Positions 41,584 through 52,410 of a stretch of 64,000 nucleotides of DNA are shown in pieces. Every line of letters starts with the position of its first letter. The first letter of the stretch is position 1. The translations under genes and the position numbers were made by a program. The DNA comes from an uncultured Eubacteriales bacterium (lineage in GTDB: Bacteria; Acidobacteriota; Aminicenantia; Aminicenantales; Aminicenantaceae), in the NCBI GenBank assembly GCA_964406575.1, contig CAYOSH010000022.1, positions 2,740 to 66,739 of the forward strand, given 5' to 3'. The notes under the pieces were generated by a model, which did not search any database, was not told where the DNA came from, and saw nothing but the letters and a program-made list of their open reading frames with translations.

Positions 41584-42234
41584 ATGAGTAATGAAAAGTT
41601 TCTTGAAATGGTCAAAAAGGCGATCGTCGAAGGGAATAAAGACGAAGCGGAACAACTGGCACAACAGGCGATCGCAGAAAAAATGGATCTCAACGAGGTC
41701 ATCGAACAGGGATACATACTGGGGATCCAAGAAGTGGGACGTCTGTGGGAAGAGGGGGAATATTTTTTGCCCGAGTTGATCACCAGCGCGGAATGCATGA
41801 AGGCCGCTATGGAGATCATGAAGCCCGAGCTGGAAAAAGCTCATATCACCACACGATCCGAGGGAAAAGTCGTCATCGGAACTGTCGAGGGCGATATCCA
41901 CGATATCGGTAAAAACCTCGTAGCTTCGATCCTCTCAGCAAACGGATTCGATGTCATCGATCTCGGAGCGGATGTGAAGCTGGACCAGTTTATTGAAAAA
42001 GCGGACGAAGTGAACGCTGACCTGATCTGTTTATCTGCGCTCCTGACTACGACCATGACCGGACAAAAAAAGCTGATCGAGCGCCTCAAAGAAAAAGGCC
42101 TTTATGGACGATTCAAAGTCATGGTGGGCGGAGCTCCTGTCAACCAAAAATGGGCTGACGATATCGGTGCTGACGGCTATTCGGAGAATGCTCTCACAGC
42201 GGTGGGCGCAGCGAAAATGTTGGCAAAAAAATAG
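41584..42234 (+). CDS. Methyltransferase cognate corrinoid protein (MttC-like)
   Basis: YFLPEL, GDIHDIGKN, SALLTTTM and GGAP. Adjacent to an MttB homologue. Confidence 0.93.
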   Translation: MSNEKFLEMVKKAIVEGNKDEAEQLAQQAIAEKMDLNEVIEQGYILGIQEVGRLWEEGEYFLPELITSAECMKAAMEIMKPELEKAHITTRSEGKVVIGTVEGDIHDIGKNLVASILSANGFDVIDLGADVKLDQFIEKADEVNADLICLSALLTTTMTGQKKLIERLKEKGLYGRFKVMVGGAPVNQKWADDIGADGYSENALTAVGAAKMLAKK

Positions 42235-42314
42235 AACAGGCGTCAAAGAAGCCAAAACACATCCAAATAATGTTACAGATTGAGTTTTTAATGAAAATCA
42301 TTTAGAGGAAAAAA

Positions 42315-43787
42315 ATGATTGAACCGCGAAGACCAAAATTAGAACTTTTGAGCAATGAACTGATCCAAAAAATCATAGATGAGGCATACGATATCCTCGA
42401 AAATCAGGGTGTTTTTATCGAGAACGAAGAGGCGCTGGAGCTTCTTCGAGATGCGGGGATGAAAGTCGATACGTCCTCCCAGAGAGTAAGAATCACCCCG
42501 CAGCTCGTTGAAGATTCTCTTGCATCGACGCCAGCCTCTCTTAAGATGTATGACAGGGACGGAGAGACAGAGTATCTCATTGGGGAGGATGAAGTCCATT
42601 TTAACCCGGGCTCTGTGGCTGTCACCATACTGGACTTCGAGACACAGCAGGAGAGGAAGGCTGTCACTGACGACCTGATCCGGTTTACCCATCTGACTGA
42701 CTGCCTCGAGCATCTCCACTTCCAGAGTACCGGAATTCTGAGCAGTGATGTCTCGGAGATCATTTCGGACAGCTACCGGTTGTACATCGGCCTCTTATTT
42801 TCCAAAAAACCCATTGTCACCGGAACCTTTCGAGTGGAAGGATTTGAGCCCATGCACAGAATGCTCGTGGCCGTACGGGGAAGTGAAAAGAATCTTTCGG
42901 ATAAACCGCTGGCAATCTTCGATGCCTGCCCCTCCCCTCCTCTCAAATGGAGCAATTTGACCGCCCAAAGTTTGATCGACAGCGCCAGGGCTGGTATTCC
43001 CTCCGAATTGATTTCCATGGGGATGACAGGAGCCACTTCTCCCGTCACGATCACAGGCACGCTGGTCCAACATGTGGCTGAAAACCTGTCCGGTTTGTTG
43101 ATATGTCAGCTCGCCAAAAAGGGCGCACCAGTGATCTTCGGCGGATGTCCTTTGAGTTTCGATATGAGGAAAGGGACAACTCCTATCGGCGCAATAGAAA
43201 CTTTGATGATCGACTCCGCTTACGTTCAGATTGGAAAACATCTCGGTCTTCCGACTCACTCTTACATGGGAATGAGCGATGCTAAGATCAATGATGCACA
43301 GGGAGGATTTGAAACTGGAATAGGTATAATTCTGGCCGCACTTTCAGGAGTGAATGTGATCTCCGGCGCAGGAATACTGGATTTCATCAGGTGCCAGAGT
43401 CTGGAAAAACTGGTCATTGACAATGAGATCTGCGGGATGGCATACCGTTTGATAGAAGGGATAGCGCAACGCGATGATCCGATCGCTCTGGATCTTTTCA
43501 AAGATTTCGCAGCCGACACACAGTTCCTCTCTATGCCCCACACCAGAAAGTGGTACAGAGAGGAACACACATTTCCCAAGCTGATCGATCGGGATCCCTA
43601 TGACATCTGGGTATCCAAGGGGAAAAAATCAATTTCTTCGCGGGCCAAAGAAGAGGTGGAGAGCCTGCTGCAAAAGAATCTAGCGCCGCTTCCTGATAAA
43701 GAAATACAAAAGGCGCTCAAGGAAATCATGTTGTCCGATGCGCAAAGAAACGGCATGCCCTCGCTGCCCGAGATAGACTTTCCTTAG
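42315..43787 (+). CDS. MttB-superfamily corrinoid methyltransferase, non-pyrrolysine type
   Basis: SPVTITGTLVQ, FDMRKGT and SLEKLVIDNEI. The Pyl-equivalent position is Met (LPTHSYMG-M-SDAK). No internal TAG. Confidence 0.92.
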   Translation: MIEPRRPKLELLSNELIQKIIDEAYDILENQGVFIENEEALELLRDAGMKVDTSSQRVRITPQLVEDSLASTPASLKMYDRDGETEYLIGEDEVHFNPGSVAVTILDFETQQERKAVTDDLIRFTHLTDCLEHLHFQSTGILSSDVSEIISDSYRLYIGLLFSKKPIVTGTFRVEGFEPMHRMLVAVRGSEKNLSDKPLAIFDACPSPPLKWSNLTAQSLIDSARAGIPSELISMGMTGATSPVTITGTLVQHVAENLSGLLICQLAKKGAPVIFGGCPLSFDMRKGTTPIGAIETLMIDSAYVQIGKHLGLPTHSYMGMSDAKINDAQGGFETGIGIILAALSGVNVISGAGILDFIRCQSLEKLVIDNEICGMAYRLIEGIAQRDDPIALDLFKDFAADTQFLSMPHTRKWYREEHTFPKLIDRDPYDIWVSKGKKSISSRAKEEVESLLQKNLAPLPDKEIQKALKEIMLSDAQRNGMPSLPEIDFP

Positions 43788-43822
43788 AAAAAATTGACTA
43801 GTTTATACAAAAAAAAAGAGCT

Positions 43823-44698
43823 ATGATGGGGACATCCCCAGTCATTAGACAAACAATGCCTTCAAAAAAATATGGCTGGACGACCAGCCAGATGCAACGA
43901 TTGAGAGAACTCAATGCGACCGAGGTCTTGCTCAGCAAACAATTTCCTGACCTTAAGACACGAAATAGAAACTTCTTCAAGATCGAACAAAATTTGGCTC
44001 GTCAGAGTCAAGAAAATCTCCAAGTCTTGCGCACAAAGCGCCGGCGTCCTCGGTTGTGCGAACTGGAAGATTTCCTTGTACAGACGCTGGTGAAACAGGG
44101 CTTCGTTCAGGTTGTCACACCGATTCTCATTGCCAAAGATTCCCTCGCAAAGATGTCGATTGAGCCAGGTCACGAGCTGTTCAAACAGGTTTTTTGGGTC
44201 GAAGAAAAAAAATGCCTGAGACCTATGCTGGCTCCCAATCTCTATTTTCTGCTGAGAGAGCTCGTGAACATATGGGAAAAACCGGTGAGGATCTTTGAAG
44301 TGGGCCCATGTTTCCGAAAGGATACAAAAGGCCGACACCATATCAATGAATTCACCATGCTCAATCTTGTGGAACTGGGCTTACCGATAGCTAAAAGAAA
44401 AGAGAGACTGGAGGAACTCGCATCGATCATTTTGCAATCAAGCGATATCGCAAAATTCAGTTTTGTCTCTCATCGGAGCGAAGTCTACGGCGAAACGATA
44501 GATGTTCTTTCCGGTTTCGAAGTCGCCTCAGGAGCGATGGGCCCTCATCCACTGGATTCGAATTGGGGAATCACGGATCCCTGGATCGGCATTGGATTCG
44601 GATTGGAAAGACTGCTTATGGTCAGGGAAAATTTCCAAAATATCCAGCGTGTTGGCCGAGCCCTGATCTACCTGGATGGAGAACGACTGAACATTTGA
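43823..44698 (+). CDS. pylSc: Pyrrolysyl-tRNA synthetase C-terminal catalytic subunit
   Basis: WTTSQMQRLRELNA, GFVQVVTP, CLRPMLAPNLY, FEVGPCFRK, EFTMLN, PWIGIGFGLERL and YLDGERLNI. The start could be the later Met (MPSKK). Confidence 0.97.
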   Translation: MMGTSPVIRQTMPSKKYGWTTSQMQRLRELNATEVLLSKQFPDLKTRNRNFFKIEQNLARQSQENLQVLRTKRRRPRLCELEDFLVQTLVKQGFVQVVTPILIAKDSLAKMSIEPGHELFKQVFWVEEKKCLRPMLAPNLYFLLRELVNIWEKPVRIFEVGPCFRKDTKGRHHINEFTMLNLVELGLPIAKRKERLEELASIILQSSDIAKFSFVSHRSEVYGETIDVLSGFEVASGAMGPHPLDSNWGITDPWIGIGFGLERLLMVRENFQNIQRVGRALIYLDGERLNI

Positions 44699-44769
44699 GA
44701 ACATTTTGCTCTCTTAATTTGAGTGATCAAGAGATGAGTTAGGATTCTATTCACACAACAGGAGATGGA

Positions 44770-45420
44770 ATGATGAGTAAAGAAGAGTTTTTTAAAGAAG
44801 CCGAGCAATCGATTTTAAACCATGACAAGGCTAAAGCCGAGGAGGTTGCACGAAAGGGCCTCGCTGAAGGTCTAGATCCGGTTGAATTCATCACAAAGGG
44901 CTTCCGTGAAGGGATCACTCAGATCGGAGATCTTTTCAGTAGAGGGGAGATTTTCCTGCCGCAACTCATCGAAGCAGCCGAGGCTATGAAGACAGCAAAT
45001 AAAATCCTTACAGAATCGATGCCAGAGTCTGCTCAAGAGAAAAGAGGTAGGTTCGTCATAGGAACAGTGCAGGGAGACATCCACGATATCGGAAAATTCT
45101 TAGTGATCTCTCTCCTTCGCGTCAACGGTTTTGAGGTTTACGACTTGGGTCATGATGTCGAAATACAAAAATTTATCGATAAGGCCCTGGAAGTCGAGGC
45201 GCATATTATCGGAACGAGCGCCCTCCTGACCACAACCATGATCGGGCAAAAAACCCTGGAAGAAAAGCTGAAAGAATCCGGACTTAAAAGCAGGTTCAAA
45301 ACGATGGTCGGCGGAGCCCCGGTCACCCAACGCTGGGCCGAAAGGATCGGAGCCGATGCTTTCGGTGAGGACGCCAACGATGCCGTAGAGAAAGCCCTCC
45401 GTCTGGTCGGTTCAAAATAG
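44770..45420 (+). CDS. Methylamine methyltransferase corrinoid protein (probably the MtbB partner, MtbC-like)
   Basis: IFLPQL, GDIHDIGK, SALLTTTM and GGAP. Located inside the pyl cluster; the partner assignment is inference. Confidence 0.9.
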   Translation: MMSKEEFFKEAEQSILNHDKAKAEEVARKGLAEGLDPVEFITKGFREGITQIGDLFSRGEIFLPQLIEAAEAMKTANKILTESMPESAQEKRGRFVIGTVQGDIHDIGKFLVISLLRVNGFEVYDLGHDVEIQKFIDKALEVEAHIIGTSALLTTTMIGQKTLEEKLKESGLKSRFKTMVGGAPVTQRWAERIGADAFGEDANDAVEKALRLVGSK

Positions 45421-45465
45421 ATCGCACTTTCTTTTTTTTTGAGTGAGATTCGCAGACATAACATT

Positions 45466-46578
45466 ATGGCAGAGAGAGATCGATACCCAAAACTCGAAGA
45501 GATCCTGGAAAAATCTCTGCAAAGAAAACCACTATCCGCATCAGAAATCACATATCTTCTTGGATTAACGGAAGGGAACAAGATATCCCGAGTTTTTCAA
45601 ACAGCCCAGTATCTAAGAGCCAAGCATTTTGGGAACAAAGTCTTTCTTTACGGATTTGTCTATTTTTCCACATACTGCCGGAATAATTGCACATTCTGTG
45701 CATCCCGGGCGTCCAATAAGCTCGCGCTACGGTATAGAAAAAGCCAATCGGAGGTCTTAGAAGCAGCTAGCCTGCTGGCGGAATCCGGTGTTCATTTGAT
45801 CGATTTGACCATGGGAGAAGACCCCTTCTACTGCAGGAGTGAAGGCGAACACGACTCTCTCCTGACACTGATTTATAAGGTGAAGACAGAAACAGGTCTA
45901 CCGCTCATGGTCTCACCAGGAGTGGTTACAAAAGATGTGCTAGCGGAGTTTGTTAGGGCAGGGGTCGATTGGTATGCCTGTTATCAGGAAACGCACAACC
46001 GACAGCTATTCGCCTATCTCCGCCCGGAACAAAATTTTGACACACGTCTCTCGGGTAAAATTTTAGCGAAACAGCTGGGAATCCTGATCGAAGAAGGAAT
46101 TTTGACAGGAGTCGGAGAATCTCTCTCTGATATCGCATTATCCATGGAGGTAATTCGGGCGTTAGGCGTTCAACAGGCCAGAGTGATGAGTTTTGTTCCC
46201 CAGATCGGGACGCCAATGTGTGATAGAAAATCGCCTTCTCGGCTAAGAGAGTTGATGACTATCGCCGTGTTACGCCTCTTGTTCCCGGACCGGTTGATCC
46301 CTGCTTCTTTAGATGTAGACGGCCTTGATCTCCTCCAAGAGCGGTTAGAAGCGGGTGCGAATGTGATCACATCCCTGATCCCTCCAAGACTTGGATTATC
46401 AGGCGTTTCTCAGCCCTCTCTCGGCATAGACGAGGGATCCCGCACGGTTCCAGGTGTGGCTCCCCTGCTCAATGAGATGGGGATGGAGGCGGCTGCGCCT
46501 CAAGATTATTCTCTATGGATTTATGCCGAAAAATCAGCCTTAGCTCGCCGTTCGGCAAATTATGAGGTGGCCGCTTGA
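45466..46578 (+). CDS. pylB: 3-methylornithine synthase (radical SAM)
   Basis: FLYGFVYFSTYCRNNCTFC, HLIDLTMGEDP, ACYQETH, RVMSFVPQ.GTP and LIPASLDVDG. First ATG at 45466; an in-frame TTG lies at 45439. Confidence 0.96.
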   Translation: MAERDRYPKLEEILEKSLQRKPLSASEITYLLGLTEGNKISRVFQTAQYLRAKHFGNKVFLYGFVYFSTYCRNNCTFCASRASNKLALRYRKSQSEVLEAASLLAESGVHLIDLTMGEDPFYCRSEGEHDSLLTLIYKVKTETGLPLMVSPGVVTKDVLAEFVRAGVDWYACYQETHNRQLFAYLRPEQNFDTRLSGKILAKQLGILIEEGILTGVGESLSDIALSMEVIRALGVQQARVMSFVPQIGTPMCDRKSPSRLRELMTIAVLRLLFPDRLIPASLDVDGLDLLQERLEAGANVITSLIPPRLGLSGVSQPSLGIDEGSRTVPGVAPLLNEMGMEAAAPQDYSLWIYAEKSALARRSANYEVAA

Positions 46579-47735
46579 GAGTGGCTGTCGTCGGTGGAAA
46601 GCTGCAGGGAGTCGAGGCAGCTTATCTTGCGCATCAGGCGGGATGGCAGGTTTTGCTCATTGACCGGGATCCGGACGTTCCCGCGAGAGGCCTTGCCCAT
46701 TCCTTCATCCAGTCGGATGTCACGCAAGACACACCGGATATCTCGGATATATTCAAGGACATGGACCTCATTATCCCGGCATTGGAAAATCAAAAGGCGC
46801 TCGAATCTTTGAAGGACCTGTCGAAAAGAAAAAGATTTCCGCTTGCTTTCGATGATGCGGCATATGCAGTTACTTCGTCCAAACAAAAATCGGACTCGCT
46901 TTTTAGAGAGTTAGGCCTTCCCGCACCTCGACCATGGCCTGACTGCGGATTTCCAGTGATTTTGAAGCCCTCAGAGTCGAGCGGAAGCCAGGGAGTTATT
47001 AAAATTTACGACAGAGAGGACCTGATTTCCTTCCGTCGGGGAAATACATTTTCTAACGATTGGATCACCCAAGAGTTTCTCGAGGGTCCCTCATACTCTC
47101 TGGAGATTGTAGGCATCGATGGAAATTATCGCTCCCTGCAATCCACGATCATCGAAGTCGACAGGAGTTTCGACTGCAAGAGAGTTATCGCCCCAGCCGA
47201 TTTGCCGGAAACTTTCGTTAACAGATTCGACGAAATCACTGTCGCCGTTGCCGAGGCCATCCACCTTACAGGAATAATGGATATAGAAGTCATTTGCCAC
47301 AATAACGAGCTAAAGATCCTGGAAATCGATGCCCGCCTGCCCAGCCAGACCCCGACAGCTGTGCTCAAATCAACCGGCATCAACATGCTGGAACTCCTGT
47401 ACGACATATTCAACAGAGGTATAATGCCCGATATCTCACTGATTATGGAGGAAAAGCCTGTCATCTATGAGCACATAAAAGTGAATCCCGATACATTAGA
47501 ATTGTCTGGTGAACATATCATGGCAGAGGCGCGACCTCTTCGCTATCAAAAGAATTTTTTTGGAGCTGACGAAGCTCTCACGGATTTTGACTCAGATCAT
47601 CCGAGTTGGGTGGCGACTTTGATTTTAACCGGGAAAACCAAAACAGAGGTCGTCCAAAAACATCACCGCGTTATGGAAACAATTCGGCAAATTTTCGGAC
47701 TGCGAGAGTGTTCGGACCCGCATCCGGGATTGTAA
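46575..47735 (+). CDS. pylC: 3-methylornithine--L-lysine ligase (ATP-grasp)
   Basis: VVGGKLQGVEAAYLA, SGSQGV, DCKRV, EIDARLPSQTP and GEHIM. TTG start overlaps the pylB TGA. Confidence 0.96.
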   Translation: MRVAVVGGKLQGVEAAYLAHQAGWQVLLIDRDPDVPARGLAHSFIQSDVTQDTPDISDIFKDMDLIIPALENQKALESLKDLSKRKRFPLAFDDAAYAVTSSKQKSDSLFRELGLPAPRPWPDCGFPVILKPSESSGSQGVIKIYDREDLISFRRGNTFSNDWITQEFLEGPSYSLEIVGIDGNYRSLQSTIIEVDRSFDCKRVIAPADLPETFVNRFDEITVAVAEAIHLTGIMDIEVICHNNELKILEIDARLPSQTPTAVLKSTGINMLELLYDIFNRGIMPDISLIMEEKPVIYEHIKVNPDTLELSGEHIMAEARPLRYQKNFFGADEALTDFDSDHPSWVATLILTGKTKTEVVQKHHRVMETIRQIFGLRECSDPHPGL

Positions 47736-47778
47736 TAAGATCTTTTGTTCTGGTAAGGACTGAAAGAACTGGTGTGAT

Positions 47779-48636
47779 ATGACGCGTTTAAGCAGTGAGT
47801 TGATCTCAGGAATGAGTGAGACTCTCGCTGCCTACGACATCGAACTCGCACAGAAGACCGGGCTTACTCTGAGACAGATCGTGGCTCGAACAGCCGGTTT
47901 ATCTGAAGAAACCCTGTGTAGTGCTTTCGGCTCTGAGAGTGCTGCCGTAATTCCGGTCACAGCAGGTCAGGGAGTTATCCAGGGATTCACTCAGGCTGTT
48001 GAAGGGATTATCGAATACTTGGGCTGCCCTTGTTTCATAACGGCAAACAGTGATGCCGCAGGACTGGCCGAAGGCATCGAAAAAGGCGCAACGATCGTCT
48101 TTTTAGCAGATGATAACCGCTTTATTGCCATTAACCTTATGCAGAAGCGCGTCGTCGACAATGCCGCGGCGACCGGATGGAGCTATGCCTATGCTTTAGA
48201 TGCCTGTGCCGGCGGTCTTAAGGATCGAGAAGTGCTTCTCATCGGCGCAGGAAGAGTAGGAGAACATGCCTTAGCGGCTCTCGAGAAACTGGAGGCAAAA
48301 GTAGGTGTTTTCGATATTAACGGTCAGAGAGTGCACGACCTTTCGTCCAAGTTCAGCATAAGCGAGGAAGAAGATCTTACAGCTTCCTTAGGAGGATACA
48401 CCCTGTTATATGATGCATCTCCAGCTTCGAATATTATCCATACAGAACACATCAAACCGGAGACGATCATCGCAGCCTGCGGCATACCGCTCGGCGTGAG
48501 TGATGAGGCTCGTTGTCTCGTCGAAGAGCGCCTCATCCATGATCCTCTCCAATTGGGAGCTGCAGCAATGCTTGCCATGGCCGTTCGCCATGGTCTGAGT
48601 GATAAAAACGGGGGGCGGATCGGACGGATCGCATAG
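47779..48636 (+). CDS. pylD: 3-methylornithyl-N6-lysine dehydrogenase (pyrrolysine synthase)
   Basis: MTRL, IPVTAGQGVIQGF, ADDNRF, GAGRVG and IHDPLQLG. The last 9 codons lie within pylT. Confidence 0.95.
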   Translation: MTRLSSELISGMSETLAAYDIELAQKTGLTLRQIVARTAGLSEETLCSAFGSESAAVIPVTAGQGVIQGFTQAVEGIIEYLGCPCFITANSDAAGLAEGIEKGATIVFLADDNRFIAINLMQKRVVDNAAATGWSYAYALDACAGGLKDREVLLIGAGRVGEHALAALEKLEAKVGVFDINGQRVHDLSSKFSISEEEDLTASLGGYTLLYDASPASNIIHTEHIKPETIIAACGIPLGVSDEARCLVEERLIHDPLQLGAAAMLAMAVRHGLSDKNGGRIGRIA

Positions 48637-48681
48637 ACCCTAAATCTATGAAGCCGGGTGCGACTCCCGGGCTCCCCGCCA
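48610..48681 (+). tRNA. pylT: tRNA-Pyl (anticodon CUA)
   Basis: 72-nt cloverleaf: acceptor GGGGGGC/GCTCCCC, single linker base, D-stem GATC/GATC with a 5-nt loop, 6-bp anticodon stem CATAGA/TCTATG, loop CCCTAAA (CTA at 48640-48642), 3-nt variable loop, T-stem CCGGG/CCCGG, discriminator G and encoded CCA. Confidence 0.97.
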
Positions 48682-48732
48682 AGAGGATATCTTTGTTTGT
48701 AAGAGTTGAAAAATTGAAGATACGAATGTAAA

Positions 48733-49071
48733 ATGGCTGAGAAAAAAATCAAAGACAAGTACATCCGCAAGCAGGTCGATTTCTTCATCCTGCTCGAAAA
48801 GATCAGACTGTGGCCCTCCCGTGGCGGTCTGCTGCACGGGATCAAGGCCTTTACGATAAAGGGAACTCTTGCTGAGATCACCACTCACTGTAATGAGACT
48901 TTTTTGATTCGGCATTCCAAAAAAAGCCGGGCCGCCCGATGGCTGCGGAATAAATGGTATTTCCAGAGCTGCAAAAAATGCAATATTCCCGAGTGGAAGA
49001 TCACGAAGTACCAGAAAACACACTTCGACCAGCATCGCGGCTCTCTATTAAGAAAAAAGACCGAACAATGA
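48733..49071 (+). CDS. pylSn: Pyrrolysyl-tRNA synthetase N-terminal subunit
   Basis: KIRLWPSRGGLLHGIK, THC, SKKSRAARWLRNKW and CKKCNIPEWK. Confidence 0.96.
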   Translation: MAEKKIKDKYIRKQVDFFILLEKIRLWPSRGGLLHGIKAFTIKGTLAEITTHCNETFLIRHSKKSRAARWLRNKWYFQSCKKCNIPEWKITKYQKTHFDQHRGSLLRKKTEQ

Positions 49072-49207
49072 CAGATTCTTGTGATAGGAGTTCGATGGGA
49101 TAAGAGAAAAGATACTTTTACAGAGAGATTCGATTTTTTTTATGAGTGTGTGCTAAAAGACACACAAAAAAATAAAAAAATCCACAAAGAAAGGAGGTGA
49201 AAAAGGA

Positions 49208-50593
49208 ATGAAGAAAATCAGAACAAGAATGGGAGATGGTTCCCTTGTGGAGCTCACCGAAGACGAATTGAAGCGAGAGTTCGAAGAAGGAACTCGAGAT
49301 GCAGCCGACAGGGGGAAAATCCCAGCCCTCACACAAAATGAGCTGGATCATCTCTTCGACATCTACAGCTCTCCATCGCGACCAGTTGGAGTTGAAATGG
49401 GAAATGAAGTCATTTTTACTTATGACTCGACATGCGGTGAAGTCCAGCGCACACTCACCCCGATCGACAGGACCCAATCGCTCCAACTGTTCGAAAGAAT
49501 GCTGGGTGCCGATACAGTAGAACTCGGTCACAACGATTACAGCTTCAAAGCGGTCAAGCCTGTCATCAGCTATGAGCGGACAGTCCTGGAGCAAGCTCTA
49601 CTAGTCACAACTGTACCTGTACTCTACGGGGCCATGCCCAATCTAGGGCTGTACTACCGGCCAGAGGGTCCGGTTCAGAACCCATCCGAGCTCATGGCTT
49701 CGGGAACAATCGACGAAGCCAGAGAGGCGCATGAAGAAGCCATCGAGTATGCGGTCAAAGATATGGTTTATGTGGCCAGCGAGCTGTATGAATCAGGCGT
49801 GGACGCCATCGACTTCGATACGACAGGTTCTGCCGGTGATCCAGACTTTCTAGCCGCTTTGCGGGCGGTGGAGATCCTGAAGGGGAAGTATCCGGACCTT
49901 TGTGTGGAGATGGGCATGTCGGGGGAATTTGTCCTAGGGATGCATGGAGGCTTGACTTACGATGATATTAGACTGGCGGGATTGTATCCTCATCAACAAG
50001 TCCAGCTTGCAGAGAAGGCGGGAGTCACGATTTTCGGACCCGTTATTAACACGAATACCAGCAAGACCTGCGCATGGAATGTCGCGCGTGTCGTAACCTT
50101 CCTTAAATTTTGTGTAGAACAATCGAACATTCCAGTGCACGCAAACATGGGAATGGGGGTCGGCGGATTACCTGTGACGCCCTATGTCCCTATTGATGCA
50201 GTCTCGAGAGCGTCCCAAGCCGTGGTTGAGATCACGCGTCTCGACGGGTTGTAGGTGGGCGTGGGAGACATTCTCGGCATGGCTGCGACTCACGCGATTG
50301 CGTCGGGCATGGGCGGGATGCGCACCGCCGGAGATCTGGTGGCGCGCATGCAAATGTCCCGGGGTATGAGACTCAAGGAAGCCAAAGAGTACGTGGCTGG
50401 CAAACTGAACCTTTCACTCATTGAACTCAGCGATCCGCTCGTGATGTCTGAGCGCAGAGAGGACCTCAAGCTGGGATTGATCAATCCCCCACCCAACTAT
50501 GTCAAGGGCATCGAGGCCAAGTTCCACATTGCAGAACTACTGGGAGTCGAGATCAACTCCCTCCGGCGGTTCAGAGAAAAAATCAAAATTTGA
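49208..50593 (+). CDS. mtbB: Dimethylamine:corrinoid methyltransferase containing pyrrolysine (461 aa, Pyl at codon 349)
   Basis: RMGDG N-terminus, DYSFK.VKP, YGAMPNLGLY, FDTTGSAGD and HANMGMGVGG. The in-frame TAG at 50252-50254 falls in RLDGL-O-VGVGD, matching the conserved DGI-O-IGVGD of MtbB. Homology continues after it (AGDLVARMQ, KGIEAK). Confidence 0.96.
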
Positions 50594-50694
50594 TCAGTCA
50601 TCGAAAATGACCGATTTTTTGATGTGAGTGTGTTCGTGCATTTATCTAAGATCGCAGCCTTTTTTGGCCATGCGACAGAAAGCGAGGGAGAATT

Positions 50695-52410
50695 ATGCGA
50701 AAACGTTTTTTCCTCTTCGGGTGTCTTTTAGCTTGGAGTTTTCTTTTCTTATGCTGTGGTTCTGTCAAGAAAGATTTCGAAATCCTGATTGTGAAAGGGA
50801 CTATAGTTGATGGTTCGGGAAAACCGGGTTTTCAAGGAGACATTGGCATATCCGGAGATACAATTGTCGCTGTCGGTGACCTGTCGGGGAAAACGGCTCA
50901 TCGCACAATCGACGCAGAGAACCGCATAGCTTCTCCGGGATTCATCGACATGCATACGCACTGCGATGGAGGTTTGGGGGAACAAGAGTCATGTGCGAAT
51001 TTGAATTACCTGATTCAGGGAACAACAACCGTTGTAACGGGCAACTGCGGAGGTGGCACCTACAATATTGCAGAGACAAAAGCTGAATGGGAGCTCCAGG
51101 GCATAGGTACAAATGCGATTCATCTCATCGGATTTGGTGACGTCCGGCAGGCCGTTTTGGGCAATGAGCCGCGCGACCCCACTCCTCAGGAGCTTGAGGA
51201 AATGAAAGCCATCGTGCGCCGGGGGATGCAAGAGGGAGCCTGGGGAATGAGTACGGGCCTTGAGTATATCCCTGACATGTATGCGACGACAGAGGAGATT
51301 ATTGCCGTCACGCATGTTGTCTCCGAATTTGGCGGCATTTATGCGAGTCACCAGAGAAACGAAGTGGCCCGCGTACCGGACGCGACCAGAGAGAGCATCA
51401 GGATTGCCAAAGAGACAGGAGTCCGGGTCAATATCTCACATCTTAAAATCTGCGGAAAGAATAACTGGGGGATGATGGACGAAGTCATTCAAGTGATCAA
51501 TGAGGCAAGAGACAACGGGATCACAATCACAGCAGATATGTATCCTTACGATAAAGCTGCGACAGGGCCTCTTATCGCTATTGCGACTAACTCCGGCTGG
51601 TCGTGCTTCCGGCTTCCCGAAGAGATGCAGCCATTTGCGGCACTCAGAGAAAAAATGAAAAATGAAATGTTGACGGAAGAAGAAAGGGCCGATTTGAAAC
51701 GGCAATATATCGAAGAACTCGAAAAAGCGCTTTCCGATAAAGCCAAACGGGACGAGATCAGGAAATCGGTGCTCTTCGGAGTTCCTCACAATCCAAGCCC
51801 TGTTGCCGTGTCGGGTTGGGATAGCTATGCAGTCGTCGCCGCGAGGAAAAACACTCACCTGATCGATAAAATCATCTCTGACCTCGCACTCGAACAGCAG
51901 AGAGATGCTTTCGACATAGCGGCTGAATTGGTCGTGGAAGAACCTGACCTGTACCTCTCCTGTGGCGCGCTGTCTGACGAAGACATGAAAAAATTGATGA
52001 CATACGACTGGTTGATGTTTTCCAGCGATGGAGGGGCTTACCCGGTACCGGACAAAGCAGACAGCCCCAAACCGGGCCATCCTCGGAGTTTCGGCAGTCA
52101 AGCAAGGGTTCTTCGTAAGTACGTGCGAGAGGAGGAGGTTTTGCGATTGGAAGAAGCCGTCCGGAAAATGACATCTCTCCCAGCCCAATTCCTCCAGTTA
52201 AAGGACAGAGGTTTGCTCATGGAGGGATACAAAGCGGATGTGATTGTGTTCGATCCTAAAACCATCAAGGATAACGCCACGTACGCAAATCCGAAGCAGT
52301 ATAGTACTGGTACGGATTTTGTCCTGGTTAACGGTGAAATCAGTGTCGAAAGAGGAAAATACACAGGCTCTCGCAACGGTAATCTGCTGCTTCTGACAGA
52401 AAATCGATAG
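50695..52410 (+). CDS. N-acyl-D-amino-acid deacylase family amidohydrolase, exported
   Basis: PGFIDMHTH, GNCG, MSTGLEY, SHLK, SSDG, HPRSFG and AVRKMTSLPA. N-terminal signal, possibly a lipoprotein. Confidence 0.9.
   Translation: MRKRFFLFGCLLAWSFLFLCCGSVKKDFEILIVKGTIVDGSGKPGFQGDIGISGDTIVAVGDLSGKTAHRTIDAENRIASPGFIDMHTHCDGGLGEQESCANLNYLIQGTTTVVTGNCGGGTYNIAETKAEWELQGIGTNAIHLIGFGDVRQAVLGNEPRDPTPQELEEMKAIVRRGMQEGAWGMSTGLEYIPDMYATTEEIIAVTHVVSEFGGIYASHQRNEVARVPDATRESIRIAKETGVRVNISHLKICGKNNWGMMDEVIQVINEARDNGITITADMYPYDKAATGPLIAIATNSGWSCFRLPEEMQPFAALREKMKNEMLTEEERADLKRQYIEELEKALSDKAKRDEIRKSVLFGVPHNPSPVAVSGWDSYAVVAARKNTHLIDKIISDLALEQQRDAFDIAAELVVEEPDLYLSCGALSDEDMKKLMTYDWLMFSSDGGAYPVPDKADSPKPGHPRSFGSQARVLRKYVREEEVLRLEEAVRKMTSLPAQFLQLKDRGLLMEGYKADVIVFDPKTIKDNATYANPKQYSTGTDFVLVNGEISVERGKYTGSRNGNLLLLTENR

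Follow-up and report, generated by a model that had tools for sequence, protein, structure and literature searches.

Why should the gene for an enzyme end inside the tRNA gene that follows it, and does such an arrangement serve a purpose? This question is raised by a stretch of 64,000 nucleotides (nt) from contig CAYOSH010000022.1 of the assembly GCA_964406575.1 (positions 2,740 to 66,739; hereafter the window, from whose first letter positions are counted below), which is labelled as an uncultured Eubacteriales bacterium and is placed by GTDB within the order Aminicenantales of the phylum Acidobacteriota. In the window, the reading frame of pylD, which encodes the last enzyme of pyrrolysine (Pyl) biosynthesis, a dehydrogenase, remains open into pylT, the gene for the tRNA of this amino acid (tRNA-Pyl), and is terminated there by a TAG codon within the anticodon stem. 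The initial annotation of this stretch suggested that the overlap could be a feedback device. As described below, the overlap is real and not an assembly error; it probably represents a tolerated, frozen fusion of a gene and a tRNA, in which any coupling between the two products would be a side effect.

The overlap between pylD and pylT

The features that make up the junction are as follows:

47779-48636, plus strand: pylD including its stop codon, 285 amino acids (aa) (list of open reading frames (ORFs); TIGR03911)
48610-48681, plus strand: pylT, tRNA-Pyl with anticodon CUA and an encoded CCA (ARAGORN and fold)
48610-48636, plus strand: overlap of 27 nt, made up of the last eight sense codons of pylD and its TAG, and equal to tRNA positions 1-27
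48634-48636, plus strand: TAG stop codon of pylD, in the 5' strand of the anticodon stem
48640-48642, plus strand: anticodon CTA, starting at tRNA position 31 (ARAGORN and fold)
48649-48651, plus strand: next in-frame stop, TGA, reached by a read-through of five residues

The 285 aa ORF was identified as PylD by its score of 244.9 bits against TIGR03911 (3-methylornithyl-N6-L-lysine dehydrogenase; cut-off 150.05), with residues 2-265 aligned to positions 1-262 of the 266 in the model, and its N-terminal domain matched PF21455 (PylD_N; E 4.5e-33). A solved PylD chain (4j43_A, 259 aa; E 4.5e-29) aligned to residues 38-266 and ends three residues later, and hence about 16 residues of the protein in the window are extra (RHGLSDKN followed by GGRIGRIA), of which the last eight are encoded by the tRNA. 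The initial annotation had equated these eight residues and the TAG with the first 27 nt of pylT, and the sequence, ARAGORN and the predicted fold all agree with it. Its account of read-through also holds, as translation past the TAG would add five residues, with T-L-N-L directly preceding the TGA.

ARAGORN calls a single tRNA in the window, which is tRNA-Pyl at 48610-48681 on the plus strand, and this is the only copy among the 43 tRNAs called in the genome (89.4% complete). A full cloverleaf is present in both the minimum free energy (MFE) and the centroid folds of 48560-48700, where tRNA positions 23-28 (CAUAGA) form the 5' strand of a 6-bp anticodon stem, and the four features that we take to define tRNA-Pyl are all present in the dot-bracket fold. 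A scan of 47000-50000 with Rfam, whose tRNA model may not normally score tRNA-Pyl, gave no match at E<=1; hence, the tRNA is called on the strength of ARAGORN, of its fold and of the pyl genes around it. Such junctions are rare in this genome (G000 in our numbering of genomes), since an ORF of at least 200 aa on the same strand is open into the 5' end of only two of its 43 tRNAs.

The two other frames both have stops just upstream of the tRNA, and the initial annotation had listed these (TGA at 48596-98 and TGA TAA at 48600-05) with the suggestion that reads be inspected for an indel within 48550-48609. The listed stops are present and they sit within the in-frame codons cTG AGT GAT AAA, which include a conserved D/N-K pair. 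The Logan contigs X3 (48300-48778), X6 (48434-48714) and X4 (48595-48755) contain no other letters and no gaps, and these identical contigs from three further runs exclude an indel in the assembly. A fourth contig, X1, which is possibly from the source sample, is also identical at the junction. A search for sequencing runs that contain this DNA listed 18 DNA runs and no RNA run. The frameshift hinted at by the out-of-frame TGATAA was likewise ruled out, as these bases belong to the conserved D/N-K codons, and 68 homologues as well as the independent contigs retain the same frame.

Conservation of the overlap within the order

Among 339 genomes of the class, PylD was found above the family cut-off in 20, of which 12 belong to the order of the window (families f1, f2, and f7 in our numbering); genome G004 adds a partial copy, bringing the number for the order to 13. 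In all 13 of these genomes tRNA-Pyl directly follows pylD and the pylD frame is open into the tRNA. Its stop codon lies at one of four sites:

TAG at tRNA positions 7-9, at the junction of the acceptor and D arms: G628 and G470
TAG at tRNA positions 25-27, in the anticodon stem: G000, G003, G004, G005, G006, G019, and G451
TAA at tRNA position 32, formed by the last two anticodon bases and the next A: G001 and G436
TAG at tRNA positions 42-44, in the variable loop: G025 and G033

The overlap of 27 nt seen in the window is thus shared with G003, G004, G005, G006, G019, and G451. We also fetched 26 metagenome loci (numbered with L) by a pattern for the anticodon arm, so that the arm is shared by construction and the upstream side is unselected. 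Five of them were left out (one chance match, two cut at the tRNA and two with too little upstream sequence), and the pylD frame was open into the tRNA in all of the 21 informative loci. The stop in these is the TAG at position 25 in 14 cases, the TAA at 32 in three, the TAG at 42 in one and a TGA at position 17, in the D-loop, in one (L040). In the remaining two (L039 and L047) it is a TAA located 39 nt beyond the tRNA, and the whole tRNA is contained in the pylD ORF. The initial annotation had proposed conservation in related genomes as a check, with relatives in which pylD stops before the tRNA pointing to a recent neutral loss of the stop codon; the 13 genomes and 21 loci, every one of which has the overlap, contradict this.

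Similar results were obtained with proteins. A set of 118 homologues was assembled from the best 120 of 292 matches, P0060 and P0106 (190 aa) being dropped, and 86 of the 118 carry a translated tRNA 5' sequence as their tail. These include a clade of 80 proteins (support of 99 by the Shimodaira-Hasegawa-like approximate likelihood ratio test in a quick maximum-likelihood (ML) tree), all of which have tRNA-derived tails. In the same tree, several separate origins are required for the form ending in the TAA at 32.

The form in which the whole tRNA lies inside pylD was seen in one metagenomic clade, with eight proteins of 308-318 aa. In L047 (5475-5592) the long pylD ORF ends 1 nt before a pylSn-like ATG, a gap which suggests translational coupling in this nested clade, as in selB-ORF1/2. 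For two of the loci with the TAA at 32 (L056 and L059) ARAGORN called no tRNA despite a tRNA-like sequence, and both were counted as uncertain.

Some further observations were made on these loci. In tRNAs a U (U33) is nearly universal 5' of the anticodon. The anticodon loop in the window (48638-48644) reads CCCUAAA and has a C at this site. This loop is common to G000, G001, G003-G006, G019, G025, G033, and G451, and the loop UUCUAAA is found instead in the genomes G628, G470, and G436 and in the loci L124, L125, and L131. No mention of a C preceding the tRNA-Pyl anticodon was found in the passages of PMC9630628 that were consulted. In locus L011 (G033:C14:96289-97082), pylD matches its model in two pieces (1-170 and 191-262), and no more than 178 aa are encoded by the frame that enters the tRNA; the gene may be frameshifted or a pseudogene, or the genome may be misassembled here. 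Lastly, near-identical pyl clusters carry conflicting source labels (Aminicenantes/Acidobacteriota, "uncultured Eubacteriales" and Heimdallarchaeota); as these differ in phylum and even in domain, they suggest that some contigs of metagenome-assembled genomes are mis-binned or mislabelled.

The state in outgroups and the origin of the overlap

In all eight PylD-containing genomes of family f12, which belongs to the same class but to another order, and in G271 from the same phylum, pylD has its own stop codon. ARAGORN found no tRNA downstream within the loci fetched from these nine genomes, which extend about 1.4 kb past pylD. In G271 a PylSn-like ORF overlaps the stop of pylD, and in L127, L128, L132, and L133 a PylSn-like ORF, recognised by eye, follows pylD. 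This outgroup state indicates that it was near the base of the window's order that pylT took up its place between the two genes pylD and pylSn, and that pylD lost its own stop there. The overlap would have had a single origin in this event. The cluster in the window resembles the canonical bacterial pyl clusters of G271 and f12 in having the same genes, a split PylS (pylSc and pylSn) and a contiguous pylBCD, but differs from them in that pylT lies between pylD and pylSn and pylD lacks a stop of its own. In Desulfitobacterium hafniense the order is pylT-pylSc-pylBCD-pylSn.

Constraints on the junction at the RNA level

Two features of the sequence just upstream of the tRNA are of interest:

48574-48594, plus strand: candidate RNA hairpin within the tail codons of pylD, CCAUGGC / GCCAUGG, with a 5-nt loop and a G-U closing pair
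48595-48609, plus strand: A-rich stretch, pylD codons L-S-D-K-N and would-be 5' leader of the pre-tRNA

The base that precedes the tRNA (-1) is C or T in each of 23 distinct junctions, and the last residue before the tRNA in all of 68 proteins is C, S, N, Y, H, R, F, or D, every one of which is compatible with an NNY codon. The last base of every stop codon is a purine, and this -1 pyrimidine constraint is therefore enough to rule out a stop that directly abuts the tRNA. Bacterial ribonuclease P (RNase P) prefers a U at -1. In the MFE fold of the window, the -1 base C (48609) pairs with the discriminator G (48678) and extends the acceptor helix to 8 bp, and most relatives have a U at -1, which could pair with the discriminator as G-U.

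The hairpin, which in the MFE fold is formed 16-36 nt upstream of the tRNA by the codons for A-M-A-V-x-H-G, also appears to be conserved. Pairing was preserved in 94.1% of 119 cells (17 sequences) versus 16-39% when the partners were slid; one pair covaries from GC to AU in 5 of the 17 sequences and there are two U-G pairs. Residue 270 of PylD is C, R, G, or S in 67 of the 68 proteins, and these dissimilar residues share NGY codons. Similarly, the combinations found at residues 267 and 271, viz. M-H (36), I-Y (11), M-R (4), and I-C (2), correspond to complementary or wobble codon pairs. The hairpin points to selection at the RNA level at this junction, but the support is modest, as the sequences are related and covariation between residues at i and i+4 may equally arise in the protein. 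One may speculate that, once the RNA has been cleaved, the hairpin shields the 3' end of the message upstream.

A comparable overlap at a housekeeping gene

The second tRNA of G000 into which a long ORF is open lies outside the window and provides a useful comparison. It is a tRNA-Gln(UUG) (G000:C1:48689-48763; locus L063:1690-1764), which is preceded by a 302 aa GHMP kinase that is ispE-like judging from its Pfam domains and a prs-like gene downstream. The TAG stop of this ORF corresponds to positions 8-10 of tRNA-Gln. When 30 loci of relatives from nine families of the order were compared, 29 had this overlap, and the other locus is without tRNA-Gln. In the wider phylum (28 loci, L119 being left out), the ispE-like gene stops before tRNA-Gln in 15, by 3 to 145 nt; three were scored as inside, of which only L102 resembles the arrangement in the window's genome, five are without tRNA-Gln and another five are without a long upstream ORF. 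An overlap of this kind has therefore long been frozen at a housekeeping gene, and persistence alone shows no function that is specific to Pyl.

A probable frozen gene-tRNA fusion and what weighs against it

On the basis of these sequence comparisons, we consider it probable that the overlap is a tolerated, frozen fusion and that the coupling which it brings is a side effect. According to this reading, pylT would have become fused flush to the 3' end of pylD, which would then end at whichever in-frame stop the tRNA first offers. The fusion would have stayed frozen for two reasons: whichever frame is read, the tRNA provides a stop, and the final codons of pylD double as the leader of the pre-tRNA, a leader that keeps a -1 pyrimidine which is unobtainable from any stop codon.

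The consequences for expression can be outlined as follows. If pylT is co-transcribed with pylD, then cleavage by RNase P at 48609/48610 would release one tRNA and leave a pylD message from which the last 24 coding nt and the stop had been removed, and this stop-less message would presumably be rescued by transfer-messenger RNA (tmRNA). The genome encodes both an RNase P RNA of type A (306 bits) and a tmRNA (184 bits). Conversely, a ribosome finishing pylD would keep the acceptor, D and anticodon arms unfolded; from its footprint, a ribosome at the pylD TAG would cover roughly tRNA positions 1-40 and prevent the acceptor stem from forming. As the cut would remove the pylD stop and the ribosome would unfold the tRNA, maturation of the tRNA and full translation of pylD should be mutually exclusive for any one RNA molecule. 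Such a coupling would be built in, as in the selB/selC type discussed below, and nothing in the sequences points to its having been tuned as a feedback that senses Pyl. The competition between translation and tRNA production put forward in the initial annotation is sound in its physical logic and matches the published selB/selC model (PMC8124441), but the TAG-specific feedback that was attached to it is unsupported, in view of relatives with TAA or TGA and of the ordinary use of TAG as a stop.

Several points weigh against a frozen fusion without function. The conserved hairpin is not explained by neutrality. The absence of any regained stop before the tRNA, in 13 genomes, 21 loci and the clade of 80 proteins, might reflect selection for the overlap as such. 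In the tree, 12 PylD proteins whose ends are canonical (the P0082-P0097 clade) are placed among the overlap clades, and the overlap may therefore have been lost in some lineages. pylT may also have an internal promoter of a kind to which a sigma-70 scan is blind. Additionally, joint transcription, cleavage by RNase P and tagging by tmRNA are all steps that we infer from the sequence.

Competing explanations

The explanation that survives best beside a frozen fusion is that of a selected homeostasis device which is not specific for TAG (Mukai-type). It holds that synthesis of PylD and release of tRNA-Pyl are alternatives that set the ratio of Pyl to its tRNA, the hairpin being part of the device. 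The overlap has survived in the 13 genomes, the 21 loci and the clade of 80 even though the frame or the stop site changed at least four times, the hairpin and the -1 pyrimidine are conserved within coding sequence, and in the nested clade only 1 nt separates the stop of pylD from the pylSn-like ATG that follows, as in selB-ORF1/2; all of these are in its favour. However, the overlap of the ispE-like gene with tRNA-Gln is equally persistent with no obvious need for such a ratio, and the nucleotide constraints alone account for the absence of new stops. We therefore regard this explanation as rather unlikely.

It may also be asked whether the two genes overlap in their coding sequence without any interplay, pylT having its own promoter inside pylD (possibly with a start at or near G+1), such that PylD and tRNA-Pyl are derived from separate RNAs and the operon mRNA is rarely processed. 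tRNAs usually require more transcripts than do enzyme mRNAs, and -10-like hexamers (CATAAT, AATAAT, or AATGAT) are present at -12 to -7 relative to the first base of the tRNA in some relatives. In the window, however, the hexamer is AGTGAT and has no -35 element at 16-19 nt. A scan of 42000-51000 for sigma-70 promoters and terminators, which yielded 11 promoter-like sites versus 8.3 +/- 2.4 in shuffled sequences, detected nothing that resembles a promoter or a terminator between pylD and pylT, so that the internal promoter which the initial annotation had proposed to look for did not appear just upstream of pylT; nor did the scan reveal a convincing terminator between pylD and mtbB. Moreover, any read-through RNA of the operon would still fold the tRNA, and a folded tRNA within an operon RNA is a substrate for RNase P. 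A separate promoter thus appears quite improbable to us. The best sigma-70-like match in the scan (48706-48734; TTGAAA-17-TAAAAT, 10/12) overlaps the start codon of pylSn at 48733, and the stretch gatacgaatgtaaaATG in this region is common to L001 and L002 and not to L003-L005.

The feedback envisaged in the initial annotation, in which charged tRNA-Pyl reads the TAG of pylD and termination at this codon senses the abundance of tRNA-Pyl, is highly improbable. The stop is indeed TAG in the majority of genomes (7 of 13 at position 25, with four more at TAG 7 or TAG 42) and a second stop follows four codons after it, which speaks in its favour. Against this, G001 and G436 end at TAA, L040 at TGA, and L039 and L047 at a TAA past the tRNA, and the CAUAGA stem persists in lineages where its TAG is unused (L009 and L010). 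TAG also ends 21.5% of 2455 crude non-overlapping ORFs of at least 200 aa in the window's genome and is therefore an ordinary stop here. The five residues that read-through would add lie beyond the C-terminus of the solved PylD with no evident consequence, and an unrelated housekeeping gene keeps a like overlap with tRNA-Gln across the order. Programmed read-through or insertion of Pyl at the pylD TAG is similarly at odds with the TAA or TGA stops of other lineages and with a five-residue peptide whose sequence is dictated by the tRNA. The tail peptide itself changes with the frame, being GGRIGRIA, GGGSDGSHRP, WGVDRKDPIDPKSM, or GG, and hence it is unselected as protein; within one frame it tracks the substitutions in the tRNA (R/Q, R/W/K). 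The best reading of these sequences is that the tRNA-coded tail is a by-product and that the identity of the TAG is incidental, and a selected feedback specific for TAG is not supported.

Lastly, an artefact, either an indel in the assembly or a false tRNA call, for which the stops in the other two frames and the silence of Rfam might be cited, has a negligible chance of being correct, given the identical contigs of other runs, the recurrence of the junction in many independent assemblies, the 68 homologues with the same tail, the cloverleaf fold and the adjoining Pyl-dependent mtbB.

Relationship to known systems

The closest parallel is that of selB and selC, where tRNA-Sec is nested in or partly overlaps the SelB ORF (Mukai 2021, PMC8124441). 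The sections of that paper which cover the selB/selC results and discussion describe overlaps that are partial, with a conserved stop codon within the tRNA, as well as complete nesting, and an upstream stop that has been regained in some lineages; in the model proposed there, which is presented as a hypothesis (section 2.6), processing of the tRNA yields a non-stop mRNA and represses the protein. The same sections call this bioinformatic prediction the first report of a nested tRNA, and they do not mention Pyl. So far as this description goes, the two cases are alike in several respects: a tRNA for code expansion lies on the same strand in the 3' end of an ORF of its own machinery, the C-terminal extension is translated tRNA, and the same model of a non-stop message and alternative expression applies. 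In both, there are forms with partial overlap and with full nesting (the stop lying by the next start codon), and these are kept across related lineages; for pylD, the overlap in the 13 genomes and 21 loci, with L039 and L047 fully nested, illustrates this. By the same sections, the cases differ in that tRNA-Pyl is here joined to a biosynthetic dehydrogenase, whereas tRNA-Sec is joined to an elongation factor that binds tRNA. As PylD is a dehydrogenase, a rationale of "sequestration" fails to carry over. Additionally, the overlap at pylD occurs in another phylum, in each of the three frames and with five or more different stop sites, and the regained upstream stops known for selB were not found at pylD. 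What selB/selC represents for selenocysteine, the pylD/pylT overlap represents for pyrrolysine, with a richer series of frames and a housekeeping comparator in addition.

Other systems share some of these features. In Escherichia coli, the co-transcripts of tRNA and mRNA from secG-leuU and the tufB operon are separated by RNase P. They are similar to pylD/pylT in having a tRNA downstream of an ORF in one transcript that is cut by this enzyme, but the stop of the ORF there precedes the tRNA. In mitochondria, according to the punctuation model, tRNAs within polycistronic RNA mark the sites of cleavage, and protein and tRNA genes may likewise overlap such that cleavage leaves messages without a complete stop. 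Mitochondria complete such stops by polyadenylation; we know of no stop repair of this type in bacteria, where stop-less messages go to tmRNA. Also, the genome of the window is 4.3 Mb in size and is not under comparable compaction. A mitochondrial tRNA that is integrated in a protein gene, e.g. tRNA-Lys within cox1 of Armadillidium vulgare, is cited in PMC8124441.

In the literature that was searched (titles, abstracts and passages of PMC1976440 and PMC9630628, main text only), no report of an overlap between pylD and pylT was found. Judged by their titles, none of the four papers citing PMC8124441 deals with Pyl.

Neighbouring genes

The remaining genes of the region are listed below:

42315-43787, plus strand: MttB-family ORF, 490 aa, upstream of pylSc
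43823-44698, plus strand: pylSc (ORF list and profile searches)
44770-45420, plus strand: corrinoid protein (ORF list and profile searches)
45439-46578, plus strand: pylB (ORF list and profile searches)
46575-47735, plus strand: pylC (ORF list and profile searches)
48733-49071, plus strand: pylSn, small subunit of the Pyl-tRNA ligase (TIGR03912, E 1e-37)
49208-50593, plus strand: mtbB, dimethylamine methyltransferase, with an in-frame TAG at 50252-50254

The pyl genes thus form a row on one strand in the order pylSc, corrinoid protein, pylB, pylC, pylD, pylT, pylSn, and mtbB. When its in-frame TAG is read through, mtbB matches TIGR02368 with 523.3 bits over residues 6-458. Unlike mtbB, the MttB-family ORF is uninterrupted and has no in-frame TAG, and it may be a member of the MttB superfamily that is not dependent on Pyl.

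Significance of the overlap

In the literature that was searched, a bacterial tRNA inside or overlapping an ORF is represented by a single case, that of tRNA-Sec with selB. The same anatomy is now found for the tRNA of the other natural expansion of the genetic code, where it extends across an order, occurs in every frame and includes full nesting. The result is a natural series, with one tRNA, at least five stop sites and relatives free of the fusion, which lends itself to tests of the competition between translation and RNase P. It is also suited for asking how much non-stop message cells tolerate and whether the supply of tRNA-Pyl follows the synthesis of Pyl. At a practical level, annotation pipelines give these PylD proteins as 285 aa in length, with tails that are tRNA sequence.

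A broader and more tentative idea, which we think doubtful, is that the operon-embedded tRNAs of this order (pylT and tRNA-Gln) are deliberately fused to the ORF upstream, with ribosome traffic across the acceptor and D arms gating the access of RNase P and the hairpin in the pyl cluster forming part of the gate. If this were true, the release of tRNA-Pyl would be tied to the translation load of the message for Pyl biosynthesis, and the junction would constitute a translation-controlled switch of tRNA maturation, parallel to that of selB/selC, which would link both of the natural genetic-code expansions.

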